NCBI GenBank assembly: GCA_003552665.1
Contig: PUNW01000166.1
Span: 1 to 35,251 of the forward strand
From: Spirochaetaceae bacterium
Lineage (GTDB): Bacteria; Spirochaetota; Spirochaetia; DSM-27196; SLAA01
Length of the DNA: 35,251 bases
Direction of reading: 5' to 3'
Position 1 is the stretch's first letter; each line of letters opens with the position of its first letter. The position numbers and the translations under genes are program-made. Below the pieces are notes generated by a model. It searched no databases. It was not told the origin of the DNA and saw only the letters and a list, made by a program, of their open reading frames with translations. Positions 11,169-14,181 of this stretch are shown here, in pieces.

Positions 11169-11426
11169 CATTTGCCTCCTCACTCTTTGACCTTTGACAA
11201 CTCCGCTCACCGCCGCTTCGTCAGCGGCGGGCGGGCCAACACACCAAAATAATACCATAAGACAGCTTGCGTGTGCGGCTCTTGATTCGCGCCCACACCG
11301 ACCGCGACGGGTTGCTACACGGGTGATCAGCTCCACCAATGAGCCGGCCTAAGGCATCTGCTTGTTGAAGAGAGCATGTAGAGTTTGTTATTTGAGGATG
11401 CGATTCGGGAAAGCGCGCAGCGGAAT

Positions 11427-11507
11427 ATGGAGCAAATTCCGACAGACGGAAGACCTACTCACCCCGGCGAAGTGTTACGTGAGGAGTTCCTCAGCCCTCT
11501 GGGGTTA
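11427..11507 (+). pseudogene. higA: N-terminal fragment of a HigA antitoxin
   Basis: MEQIPTDGRPTHPGEVLREEFLSPLGL matches the start of the intact HigA (MVRVPTDREPTHPGEILREEFLEPMGL); similarity ends just before the tRNA-derived repeat. Confidence 0.8.
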
Positions 11508-11522
11508 TTCTCGAAGGCACAC

Positions 11523-11588
11523 TGCCGGAGACGGGACTCGCTGAAGCGAGCCCCGCTTGCCACGCCGGCTCTCTCTACGAGAGCACAC
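11523..11588 (-). repeat. tRNA-linked repeat unit (47-nt minihelix 11523-11569 plus 19-nt linker)
   Basis: Identical to the unit at 13666-13731; ends in the tRNA-Leu 3' sequence CGAGTCCCGTCTCCGGCA. Confidence 0.95.
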
Positions 11589-11644
11589 TGCCGGAGACGG
11601 GACTCGAACCCGTACGGACCTCTCGGTCCAGGGGATTTTAAGTC
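11589..11644 (-). pseudogene. Displaced 3' half of tRNA-Leu(TAA) (att junction)
   Basis: GACTTAAAATCCCC-TGGACCGAGAGGTCCG-T-ACGGGTTCGAGTCCCGT-CTCCGGCA; no D-arm or 5' acceptor strand upstream. Confidence 0.9.
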
Positions 11645-11655
11645 GGGTCACCGGC

Positions 11656-11859
11656 GTAGCAGGCTGTTCCTGTGTGCCTTCTAAGACACTATTAGGAAAC
11701 AAATTAACAGGCAAGCTGTTCTTTCGTGTTCCGAGGAGATCCGCGGTGTAGCAGGCCGGATTTCTACGATTTTGCTACAATCACATCCTCATCAGATATG
11801 TAACGCCAGAAGTGAGCTCCTCAGGGTGTCAATGCTACCGAGTTGCTACATGTGGCTAG
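11656..11859. repeat. Cluster of TGCTAC-like motifs, probable tyrosine-integrase arm-type sites
   Basis: GTAGCA at 11656 and 11748; TTCTAC 11762 / TGCTAC 11773; TGCTAC 11833 / TGCTAC 11844 / GGCTAG 11854 (10-11 bp spacing). Confidence 0.55.
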
Positions 11860-11883
11860 GAGACATTGGTAGACTTACCTGTC

Positions 11884-11912
11884 TTGAAATAGCATGCGTA
11901 GCGTGCTATTCT
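11884..11912 (+). promoter_or_regulatory. Sigma70-type higBA promoter with overlapping palindromic operator
   Basis: TTGAAA-17 bp-TATTCT; inverted repeat AATAGCATGC-gta-GCGTGCTATT (11888-11910). Confidence 0.75.
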
Positions 11913-11919
11913 ATTCCGT

Positions 11920-12219
11920 GTGATTCAGTCGTTCCGAAACGATGCGAGTGAAGATCTCTTCAATGGACGAAACACGAAGGGAGCTCGTAAAGCGTGTCCG
12001 GAATCACTGTGGAACGTTCTAACGAGAAAGCTGGATGCGCTGGATTCAGCCGAACGTCTGGACGACCTCCGCATTCCACCCGGAAACCGCCTCGAGCAAC
12101 TCTCAGGAACGCGAGCCGGACAACACAGCATCAGGGTGAATGAGCAGTATCGAATCTGCTTTTCCTGGGCCGAGGGTGGACCCAAAGATGTCGAGGTGAC
12201 CGACTATCACGATGAGTGA
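11920..12219 (+). CDS. higB: HigB (RelE/ParE superfamily, plasmid-maintenance killer type) toxin
   Basis: MIQSFR..., RKLDALDSA..LDDLRIPPGNRLEQLSG.RAGQHSIRVNEQYRICF.W...VEVTDYH. Confidence 0.95.
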   Translation: MIQSFRNDASEDLFNGRNTKGARKACPESLWNVLTRKLDALDSAERLDDLRIPPGNRLEQLSGTRAGQHSIRVNEQYRICFSWAEGGPKDVEVTDYHDE

Positions 12220-12227
12220 GGGAGCAT

Positions 12228-12536
12228 ATGGTACGAGTACCTACTGATCGAGAACCAACCCATCCCGGAGAGATCCTGCGAGAAGAGTTCCTTGAGCCGA
12301 TGGGCCTCAAACAGCAGGACCTTGCGAATGCCATTCACGTCCCGTTTCAGCGAGTCAATGAGATCGTTCGTTGTCGACGAGGGGTGAGCACCTCTACGGC
12401 GCTCCGACTGGCTCGGTACTTCGGAACGAGTGCCGGCTTCTGGATGAACCTTCAATTGCGCTATGATCTCTACGAGACCGAGCGAACGGAGAAGGAAGCG
12501 CTGGAAGGGATTGAGCCGCTGCATTACGTGGGATGA
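12228..12536 (+). CDS. higA: HigA HTH antitoxin
   Basis: PTHPGEILREEFL, QRVNEIV, TALRLARYFGTSAGFWMNLQ; directly after the toxin (toxin-first order); ATG after GAGGGAG. Confidence 0.95.
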   Translation: MVRVPTDREPTHPGEILREEFLEPMGLKQQDLANAIHVPFQRVNEIVRCRRGVSTSTALRLARYFGTSAGFWMNLQLRYDLYETERTEKEALEGIEPLHYVG

Positions 12537-12546
12537 GACTATCCTA

Positions 12547-12597
12547 GAACGCCCCCTAATGGTGCTTTTCTTTTTGTCCACCATTAGGGGGTCGTTC
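12547..12597. terminator. Long hairpin between convergent ORFs
   Basis: GAACG-CCCCCTAATGGTG ... CACCATTAGGGGG-t-CGTTC: 18-bp stem with one bulged base and a 14-nt pyrimidine-rich loop. Confidence 0.5.
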
Positions 12598-12602
12598 CAC
12601 AA

Positions 12603-13071
12603 CTACCGAAATGTGTCCAAGAAGCTTTTCATTCCTAACGCGGCGTGGACAAGAACGTCGAGTAGATGTCGAGAACGGACAACGGCGGCGGTGTGTGGAA
12701 GCTCGAACCTTACTTGAAGCTGGAGGTTACCTCGCTTCTGAGACAACAGCTCGTATGCGGATCTTGACCACAGCGGCTGGTACACAACCCCATCGGTTCC
12801 GTTTGGCACGAGTACTCGTAGATCAAACTCGATCTGGGCGTCTTCGATTCCTGGCGATCTCTGGGACTTGTAGTGTCGTTGCAGCAGAAGTATGGATGGT
12901 CTCCCGCTACCATAGTCATGAGCCATCTTAGAGAGAGCCAGCGCAGTACTCTCGAGCAGGGTTACCAAACCCTTCCATCGCCAATTTCTTCAAGCGCGTC
13001 TTCACGCCTTTTGCACTGTTTGGAACAGTAACCGAGATACTGGTTTTCTTCCGACTGATCCCAACGGTGAG
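12603..13071 (-). pseudogene. 3' remnant of a hypothetical-protein gene, frameshifted near 12965 and cut by the IS256 left end
   Basis: LTVGISRKKTSISVTVPNSAKGVKTRLKKLAMEGF continues after a 1-nt shift into VTLLESTALALSKM...QRHYKSQRS...FDLR...MKSFLDTFR*. Confidence 0.55.
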
Positions 13072-13072
13072 G

Positions 13073-13663
13073 TAGAGTTCACCTGAGTGGTGTAATTTCT
13101 GGCGGAAGGTAGAGCAAGCGACCGCCGTCTCCGGTATGCTGTGGTCACCACAACAACACAGTGTGGGGAGGCAGACACGGTGGCAGAAGACAGCATCGCA
13201 TTGTTGGAGCTGGTTGAACAGTACGCGGATGCGGATTTGTTCAAGGAACTGGGACAGTACGCTTTGCAGCGGCTTATGGGAATGGAGACGGAGCAGAAAG
13301 CGGGCGCTGGTCGTCATGAACGGAAAGACGATCGCCTTACTCATCGAAACGGGTACCGCGACCGCCGGCTTGAAACGCGGCTTGGGACGATGAACCTGAG
13401 GATCCCGAAGCTGCGTAGCGGTACGTACTTCCCGTCGTTTCTCGAGCCGCGAAAGATGAGCGAGCAGGCGCTGGTGGCCGTCGTCCAGGAAGCCTACGTG
13501 AAGGGAGTAAGCACCCGCAAGATCGACGACCTCGTGCAGGCGCTCGGGATGAGCGGAATCTCGAAGAGCCAGGTCTCCAAGCTCTGCGGAGAGCTCGACG
13601 AGCGCGTGGAGGCCTTCCTGAAGCGTGAGCTCACCGGACAGTGGCCGTACATGTGGCACTCTA
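13073..13663 (+). mobile_element. Truncated IS256-family insertion sequence
   Basis: Left end TAGAGTTCACCTGAGTGGTGTAATT resembles IS256-family termini; transposase fragment inside; ACTCTA at 13658-13663 is the reverse complement of the first 6 bp. Confidence 0.75.
13180..13656 (+). pseudogene. IS256-family (Mutator) transposase, N-terminal part only
   Basis: HRNGYRDR.LETRLG..NLRIPKLRSGTYFPSFLEPR, EAYVKGVSTRK, GISKSQVS; ends at WPYMW just before the first catalytic Asp. Confidence 0.92.
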
Positions 13664-13665
13664 TT

Positions 13666-13796
13666 TGCCGGAGACGGGACTCGCTGAAGCGAGCCCCGCT
13701 TGCCACGCCGGCTCTCTCTACGAGAGCACACTGCCGGAGACGGGACTCGCTGAAGCGAGCCCCGCTTGCCACGCCGGCTTTCCCTGGAAAGCACAC
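13666..13796 (-). repeat. Two tandem tRNA-linked repeat units (66 and 65 bp) directly downstream of tRNA-Leu
   Basis: Identical 47-nt cores at 13666-13712 and 13732-13778; linkers at 13713-13731 and 13779-13796. Confidence 0.95.
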
Positions 13797-13881
13797 TGCC
13801 GGAGACGGGACTTGAACCCGTACAGGCGCAATGCCCGGGGGATTTTAAGTCCCCTGTGTCTACCAATTCCACCACTCCGGC
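13797..13881 (-). tRNA. tRNA-Leu (anticodon TAA), CCA not encoded
   Basis: GCCGGAG-TG-GTGGAATTGGTAGACAC-A-GGGGA CTTAAAA TCCCC-long variable arm-ACGGG TTCAAGT CCCGT-CTCCGGC-A folds as a full class II cloverleaf. Confidence 0.97.
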
Positions 13882-13913
13882 GTGGTTGGGTTCGGCCTCC
13901 TCGTATTGGGCCA

Positions 13914-13943
13914 ATACTACACGCAGCGTAGTTGGGTGGTCAA
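13914..13943 (-). promoter_or_regulatory. Putative promoter of tRNA-Leu
   Basis: TTGACC-18 bp-TAGTAT on the minus strand, about 30 bp upstream of the tRNA. Confidence 0.6.
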
Positions 13944-14181
13944 TGCGAAGCCGGCAGCGCGGTAGGTGGGAGCGTGAGAGAGGCGGCAGCGCGGCAGACG
14001 GTAGCGCGTGGGAGCCTCCGGCCCCGGCATTGTGGCAAAACGGTGGCCGGGTCTTCACCGTTTAGGGTTCCGTTCCGATGATTACTAACGACGGCCAAAC
14101 TCCGGAGACCGCCCGCGGACCTGGAGCGCATCGATGAATCCAAACGGCTGTCGTGACCAGCGACCAGAGGAGTGCTTGAAC

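Follow-up and report, generated by a model that had tools for sequence, protein, structure and literature searches.

Tandem two-hairpin units behind a spirochaete tRNA-Leu(TAA) gene resemble the tRNA-linked repeats of Escherichia coli

Introduction

In an uncultured spirochaete from a salt lake, the tRNA-Leu(TAA) gene is directly followed by short tandem repeats that each close with a copy of the 3' end of that tRNA. What kind of element do they represent? The locus lies in a Spirochaetaceae contig of 35,251 nt (GenBank PUNW01000166.1, assembly GCA_003552665.1), the whole of which is referred to below as the window. The contig belongs to a short-read metagenome-assembled genome (MAG) of 409 contigs that is 76% complete. 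An initial annotation of this DNA, made from its letters and open reading frames (ORFs), had described three identical 47-nt cores and interpreted them as miniature tRNAs or, alternatively, as spare integration sites. Here we report that the cores are parts of longer units of the kind known in E. coli as tRNA-linked repeats (TLRs), among them the RtT element of the tyrT operon. That these units form a transcribed and processed module of the tRNA 3' trailer is, in our assessment, the best reading and a moderately probable one. The units are a compact form of a known class, not miniature tRNAs.

Organization of the tRNA-Leu(TAA) locus

The components of the locus, all on the minus strand, are given below together with the evidence that defines them; CM R1 denotes a covariance model (CM) built from 12 units.

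13914..13943, minus strand: promoter-like site TTGACC-18-TAGTAT upstream of tRNA-Leu (consensus scan; sequence conserved in the relative G003)
13797..13881, minus strand: tRNA-Leu(TAA), CCA not encoded (ARAGORN; Rfam RF00005, 59.6 bits)
13732..13796, minus strand: unit 1, 65 nt, with GTGT, hairpin A (13777-13792), linker, hairpin B (13740-13765) and tail CTCCGGCA (13732-13739) (fold, pair counts, CM R1, 85.9 bits)
13666..13731, minus strand: unit 2, 66 nt, with hairpin A (13711-13727), hairpin B (13674-13699) and tail (13666-13673) (fold, CM, 85.3 bits)
11523..11588, minus strand: unit 3, 66 nt, identical to unit 2, with hairpin A (11568-11584), hairpin B (11531-11556) and tail (11523-11530) (exact repeat, CM)
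11513..11522, minus strand: GTGTGCCTTC, 10 nt, the start of a further truncated unit; the flank past it is conserved in G003

The three 47-mers of the initial annotation (11523-11569, 13666-13712 and 13732-13778) are exact copies without a mismatch; no match to them arose in 100 dinucleotide shuffles, and no further copy exists elsewhere in the 409 contigs of the MAG. The 47-mer, which had been taken as the unit, is the 3' part of the true repeat: the repeat periods are 65 and 66 nt, and the 18-19-nt 'spacer' is a conserved hairpin (hairpin A), which makes the real unit 65-66 nt long. An 84-nt exact repeat (11523-11606, identical to 13666-13749) comprises units 3 and 2, respectively, with the tRNA-like end that precedes each. 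The first base of unit 1 directly follows the discriminator of tRNA-Leu. The described position immediately behind that gene holds for units 1 and 2; unit 3 follows a 56-nt partial tRNA-Leu. A search of Rfam, both at the gathering threshold and at E<=10, found only tRNA and no family for the units.

From 5' to 3', the unit consists of GUGU, hairpin A (6 bp), a linker of 12 nt, hairpin B (11 bp) and an 8-nt tail. The 3' strand of hairpin B corresponds to A58-G59-U60 plus the 3' strand of the T-stem of the tRNA, and the unit end CUCCGGCA to the acceptor 3' strand plus the discriminator. The copied tRNA positions are approximately 58-73, the copy measuring 16 nt in the Leu(TAA) units and 14 nt in the Cys, Pro and Val units described below. 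RNAfold predicted both hairpins, including the 11-bp hairpin B with its UUCA loop already proposed in the initial annotation, and left the tail essentially unpaired. The 7-nt T-loop is not kept; a stem extension of 3 bp or more and a loop of 3-5 nt take its place.

Short-read assembly may collapse a tandem repeat of 66 nt, and the copy number at the locus is to be read with this in mind. Chance similarity or an assembly artefact is nevertheless an extremely improbable explanation. The MAG is derived from short reads, and contigs of its relatives often break inside arrays; against this stand the negative shuffles, the recurrence of the architecture, with sequence differences, in five genomes and two metagenome contigs, and independent k-mer contigs that cross the junctions. 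Contigs from run X1, a possible source sample, pass from unique sequence into the repeat at three junctions (island to unit 2; unit 3 spacer to partial tRNA to island; downstream flank to unit 3). These contigs are short and end at repeats, and none of them spans an array.

Upstream of tRNA-Leu, two tandem 32-nt copies that are 75% alike (13949-14012) lie approximately 5-70 nt upstream of the promoter-like site on the tRNA strand.

The hairpins covary and fold preferentially on the tRNA strand

Pairing was counted on a Leu set comprising 9 distinct units for the hairpins and 8 sequences for the proposed acceptor stem. Hairpin A was 96% paired and hairpin B 100% paired in this set, with two covarying pairs each, whereas slid controls on the Leu units reached 35-54%. 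Among 27 CM matches (25 distinct, no rows dropped, including 3 truncated copies and 1 antisense overlap), hairpin A was 98% paired, with 4 of its 6 pairs changed on both sides, and hairpin B 84% paired, with 4 of 11 pairs changed on both sides; these figures are generous, the alignment being fitted to the structure of the model and the sequences being kin. The covariation score of the CM alignment was reached by none of 500 shuffles. Furthermore, the tRNA-sense strand folded better than its complement in 17 of 18 distinct units, by a mean of 4.9 kcal/mol, an advantage that is due to G-U pairs. Judged from the sequences, the hairpins thus look selected on the sense strand, and on this account a transcribed, processed trailer module is the best reading. 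The tRNA-end copies and covarying hairpins also bear out the earlier view of the units as tRNA-derived and structured.

The pairing data bear differently on the proposal of the initial annotation that each 47-mer is an acceptor/T-arm minihelix, which would be cut by RNase P, tailed with CCA and act as a tRNA decoy. As described there, 6 of 7 acceptor pairs are possible in the window (GCCGGCG/CUCCGGC); moreover, GCCGGCGTGG resembles a tRNA 5' end, the discriminator is kept, and in some Pro units 4-6 nt of the linker are able to pair with the tail. The homologues, however, do not keep the 5' strand of the stem paired, an outcome that the initial annotation had itself named as refuting its proposal. 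Pairing is lost at the inner three positions in 4/8, 7/8 and 3/8 of the Leu sequences, respectively, without any compensatory change, and the outer four pairs are invariant among the eight and therefore uninformative. The first two bases of the supposed 5' strand are the final GC of the covarying hairpin A, the Cys units have no such strand, the T-loop is absent, and the acceptor stem does not appear in the minimum-free-energy folds. The minihelix interpretation is largely refuted by these observations and must be considered very improbable.

Homologous units at other tRNA genes and in related genomes

BLAST searches of 60 related genomes detected Leu units in 3 of the 4 other genomes of the genus and in none of the 56 genomes from the order's other genera. 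Pattern scans of public genome and metagenome contig collections yielded 16 stretches each, only 3 and 2 of which had the flanking features; the three are Spirochaetaceae MAG records, apparently the same three genomes that gave the BLAST matches, and the two are metagenome contigs. The remaining 13 and 14 stretches were discarded as chance matches of the 20-base gapped pattern. A generic scan of the MAG for 'stem-GCT...AGT-stem' gave 16 matches, 4 of them in tRNA-linked units, and nothing new.

One homologous family of 63-67-nt units was found behind Leu(TAA), Leu(GAG), Val(CAC), Pro(CGG) and Pro(GGG), with the layout GTNTG, hairpin A, CC, linker, hairpin B and a locus-specific tail; the first 22 nt, which are independent of the tRNA, reach 91% identity between units of different tRNA genes. 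A second, terminator-bearing type of 67-77 nt comprises the units behind Cys and the first units behind Pro; hairpin A of this type, together with a T-run, forms a canonical terminator. Units of the two types were seen in five genomes of one Spirochaetaceae genus, in arrays of one to four, and the Leu(GAG), Cys, Pro and Val arrays also begin directly behind their tRNA. The initial annotation had asked whether other tRNA genes carry units matched to their own acceptor stems; those of Leu(GAG), Val, Pro and Cys do carry units whose tails are matched to their own tRNA end.

In the source MAG (G000), units accompany 4 of 26 detected tRNA genes: Leu(TAA), Pro(GGG) and Cys(GCA), recognized by an exact 11-mer, and Val, recognized by eye and with the CM. 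A census in four genomes, based on an exact 11-mer test with the last 11-12 nt of each tRNA, found a copy of the tRNA end within 600 nt downstream at 3/26, 1/43, 2/32 and 5/40 tRNAs, compared with 0/143 in the upstream control. Of 10 genomes of the family searched with the CM, 6 gave matches, 24 in all; these genomes include all four others of the genus. Each of the 23 credible matches in the genus either adjoins a contig end or follows, in head-to-tail order, a tRNA, a partial tRNA or a preceding unit, and every match with a visible tRNA has the orientation of that tRNA. A match in the sister-genus genome G008 (25 bits; only one of 5 genomes) was set aside as false, being weak and having no adjoining tRNA.

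Among the other tRNA genes of the source MAG, tRNA-Lys(TTT) and tRNA-Glu(TTC) (contig C334, 1817-1973) lie 5 nt apart and encode CCA, unlike most others; contig C334 may be foreign or phage-derived.

The tails do not follow the local tRNA without exception. The two units behind tRNA-Val(CAC) of the source MAG (contig C157, 2901-3017; locus L149, 202-318) have tails that have drifted by 2 nt, both reading GGCGCCCA as against the tRNA end ATCGCCCA. Because the variant also occurs in G001, unit tails can evolve apart from the tRNA. Differences of 1 nt from the tRNA end were found in unit b of G003 and in the G002 unit.

This dispersal raises the possibility of a selfish module, that is, a tiny non-autonomous element that copies itself onto tRNA 3' ends, with positions ~58-73 as its target duplication and with a hairpin B whose 5' strand would match the T-stem of each new host tRNA. 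Such a module would account for one family with locus-specific tails behind five tRNA genes and for a copy number that varies among relatives, and E. coli TLRs are dispersed likewise, according to PMC8144298. In G004, the same hairpin-A variant (20/22 nt) stands at two loci, in unit 3 of Leu(TAA) and units 2-4 of Leu(GAG). Yet the units have no linked enzyme, loci of one genome are no more alike than loci of different genomes (0.69 vs 0.67), and ectopic recombination between similar T-arms would explain the spread as well. We consider a selfish module decidedly unlikely.

In the sister genus, genome G006 has much longer units, of 158-234 nt, behind 5 of its 40 tRNAs, namely Met, Arg(TCT), Pro(CGG), Pro(GGG) and Leu(GAG) (loci L121, L124, L130, L143 and L147). 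Each of these units opens with the T-loop and T-stem 3' strand in inverted copy and closes with the tRNA end, and units of different tRNAs have in common the conserved internal core GCGGCGCGA...GAGCGCAAACC-hairpin-GGTTTAGC. No Rfam family, RF00391 included, matched them.

An island remnant bounded by a unit and a partial tRNA

Units 2 and 3 are separated by the remnant of a genomic island, whose features are as follows.

11645..13665: island remnant of approximately 2.0 kb between unit 2 and the partial tRNA
13657..13665, minus strand: AATAGAGTG, 9 nt between unit 2 and the transposase fragment, identical at 8/9 positions to the G003 island start AATAAAGTG
13141..13656, plus strand: Mutator/IS256-family transposase, N-terminal fragment (Pfam PF00872, E 3.7e-43, profile positions 9-163 of 379)
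12216-12536, plus strand: HTH antitoxin (Pfam PF01381, E 3.7e-07)
11920-12219, plus strand: HigB-like toxin (Pfam PF05015, E 1.5e-19)
11589..11644, minus strand: partial tRNA-Leu(TAA), 56 nt, from the anticodon loop to the 3' end (local alignment; sub-threshold Rfam tRNA-clan match at 11590-11655)

The remnant starts exactly after the last base of unit 2. The transposase fragment, the N-terminal 40% of the gene, is cut off 9 nt from unit 2; its mechanically called ORF continues through units 2 and 1, and no second transposase copy is present in the MAG. The HigB and HigA genes overlap by 4 nt and have a palindromic sequence upstream, and two further ORFs of the remnant have no Pfam match. The partial tRNA-Leu has a different, self-complementary variable arm and G for A in its T-loop, and has 18 nt, CGAGTCCCGTCTCCGGCA, in common with the unit. 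The end of unit 2 and the partial tRNA flank the 2-kb remnant as direct repeats, whereas adjacent tandem units flank no element DNA.

Similar arrangements exist in two relatives. In G003, AATAAAGTG follows the true tRNA-Leu end, and the contig stops shortly after the start of an ORF that lies 170 nt further on. In G002, a homologous HigBA pair adjoins a Leu unit: the unit ends in CCGGTA, the variant present at the G003 island junction, and the HigBA-bearing insert follows. Repeats of the TGTAGCA type, (C)ATGTAGCA / CTGCTAC, occur near the partial tRNA (window 11700-11900, minus strand) and at the G003 island start (L009, 1530-1650), and may be arm-type integrase sites.

An island boundary placed exactly at the tRNA-like end of a unit means either that recombination used that end or that the island carries units 1-2 with it. 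Two findings speak for entry at the end of unit 2: units 2 and 3 are identical, and the 3' half of the intact tRNA is of native type. The start of the partial tRNA at the anticodon loop speaks for an island carrying units 1-2.

These boundaries raise the question of whether the units are to be understood at the DNA level. They could be what is left of tRNA-integrating elements, or miniature forms derived from such elements (fused att ends); or they could offer integrases or recombination an array of spare attachment sites in place of the tRNA itself, which was the alternative in the initial annotation. Integrative elements are the established mechanism for duplicating tRNA 3' ends. The exact start of the remnant after unit 2 lends the proposal some support, as do the resemblance of AATAGAGTG to the island start at the true tRNA-Leu end of G003, the partial tRNA with its 18 shared nucleotides at the other island end, and the two G002 arrangements, namely the CCGGTA-ending unit before the HigBA insert and a partial tRNA-Pro followed by two units. 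Between the tandem tRNA ends, however, only about 50 nt of conserved hairpin sequence are found, with no element DNA, and a Pfam search of the remnant in the window revealed no integrase gene. The partial tRNAs start at the anticodon loop, the usual place of integrase crossover, which the units lack, and a strand preference based on G-U pairs is not required of a double-stranded protein site. In a viral collection, neither the element-type partial tRNA nor the unit/island junction motif was found; in the genomes of the family, that motif occurs only at the two known places. We regard an origin or role of the units at the DNA level as unlikely.

Transcription signals and a model for the tRNA-linked units

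No site resembling an intrinsic terminator (GC-rich hairpin plus T-run) was found on the minus strand between 11400 and 13800, the Leu units included. The absence of a terminator after tRNA-Leu, noted in the initial annotation, makes co-transcription plausible. In addition, a canonical hairpin with a T-run follows 3 of 8 examined arrays within approximately 30 nt, which places those arrays inside the tRNA transcription unit.

Based on these signals and on the predicted folds, we propose that short structured modules stack head to tail in the tRNA 3' trailer, each ending in tRNA positions ~58-73. The arrays would be transcribed from the tRNA promoter as part of the precursor. In the predicted fold, hairpin B sequesters the T-stem 3' strand, leaving the 8-nt acceptor 3' strand plus discriminator single-stranded ahead of the next GUNUG. 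Endonucleolytic 3' maturation after each discriminator would then release trailer RNAs of ~65 nt with two hairpins, which would act neither as tRNA nor as minihelix mimics. Candidate benefits to the cell are trailer stability, insulation from the downstream gene or a trailer small RNA (sRNA). Arrays would grow and shrink through unequal recombination or slippage between the repeated tRNA ends. As a side effect at the DNA level, each unit would add a 16-18-nt tRNA end of the kind at which island boundaries fall.

Several observations weigh against a transcribed, processed trailer module. Five of the eight arrays are not followed by a terminator, and the spacers of the Cys and Pro type-1 arrays are all canonical terminators, so that the units behind them would be transcribed only by read-through. 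A search of sequencing runs found no RNA run containing the locus. The sequences are kin and few, falling into three to five tRNA-end families, so that the shuffle statistics overstate independence, and the CM alignment was fitted to the model's own structure; in a DNA palindrome, intrastrand template switching can also generate compensatory changes with no selection acting on RNA. Close relatives differ in whether units are present and in how many there are, tRNA-Pro(GGG) of G002 for example having none, as expected of unstable DNA repeats. The drifted Val tails indicate that an exact tRNA end is not required, and the exact coincidence of the island junction with a unit end suggests a role at the DNA level.

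A broader and quite unlikely proposal would unite these aspects: the present units and TLRs in general would form a widespread class of modules that colonize tRNA 3' ends, one hairpin strand pairing with the T-stem strand and positions 58-73 being duplicated. Such modules would be mobile DNA and at the same time a source of stable trailer RNAs with a free 8-nt acceptor strand, and would add tRNA ends for island recombination.

Comparison with known systems

Two other repeat classes were rejected, REP/BIME elements because copies occur only at tRNA ends, and CRISPR arrays because the 'spacers' are 18-19 nt long and conserved. Like att direct repeats, the units are copies of a tRNA 3' end downstream of the gene, a true example of such a repeat at this locus being the partial tRNA at 11589-11644 with its island remnant. 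In contrast to att repeats, the units are tandem with no element DNA between them, start in the T-loop instead of the anticodon loop, and have two covarying hairpins that belong to one family across tRNA genes.

Acceptor/T-arm minihelices are substrates of RNase P and of the CCA-adding enzyme. The units share with them the T-stem 3' strand, the acceptor 3' strand and the discriminator, but they lack a conserved 5' acceptor strand and a T-loop, and the fold prediction leaves their tail single-stranded.

If transcribed, the units would rank among the trailer RNAs, as does 3'ETS-leuZ of E. coli, an sRNA freed from a tRNA precursor (described in PMC8144298); the repeat of the tRNA end is a feature of the spirochaete units only.

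Among the papers listed, literature searches returned nothing on spirochaetes or on such units elsewhere, and the term 'tRNA-linked repeats' itself occurs in only 2 papers of the searched library. The closest counterparts are the TLRs, recorded in E. coli since 1978, for which PMC8144298 reports no accepted origin or function, and no function at all for the tRNA-linked ones. [quoted passage not shown] They include RtT of the tyrT-tyrV operon (RF00391, rttR) and RrA/RrB/RrF behind rRNA operons. No sequence similarity between the spirochaete units and RtT was found: RF00391 (cut-off 45 bits) did not match window positions 11400-14000 at E<=10, four E. coli copies used as controls scoring 133-137 bits. 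The spirochaete units differ from RtT in length (63-77 nt vs about 100-180 nt), in having a plain hairpin in place of the multi-branched core and an extra 5' hairpin A, in lacking a tpr-like ORF and an encoded CCA, and in belonging to another phylum.

The likenesses are nonetheless specific. Like E. coli TLRs, the spirochaete units stand directly behind a stable-RNA gene in the same orientation, and their family is dispersed over many tRNA loci with few copies at each and a tail that fits the local gene. As in tyrT RtT, the duplication starts at A58, extending over 19 nt with CCA in tyrT and over 16 nt without CCA in the spirochaete Leu units. The topology is also the same: in the RtT consensus structure of Rfam, and likewise in our own fold, the closing helix is formed by a 5' strand and the tRNA-derived CCUUCCC, so that in both cases a 5' strand pairs with the tRNA-derived T-stem strand while the acceptor 3' strand (in RtT with CCA) remains free. 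The features by which PMC8144298 defines TLRs, namely position behind the gene, identity with its 3' end, number of copies per locus and occurrence at several loci, were all found here, the 3'-end identity with exceptions. Together with the common RtT topology, this definition identifies the units as of the TLR/RtT kind, and the architecture, which the initial annotation had not recognized as a described element, thus has a precedent.

Genome annotation should take such units neither for tRNA pseudogenes nor for simple att scars. The compact, covariation-rich version in a distant phylum and the long version in its sister genus show which TLR features are general: the duplication begins where the T-loop ends, the T-stem strand is concealed in a helix, the acceptor strand forms a free tail, and the units are dispersed over tRNA genes with locus-matched tails. 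The question of TLR origin and function hence becomes testable by comparison.

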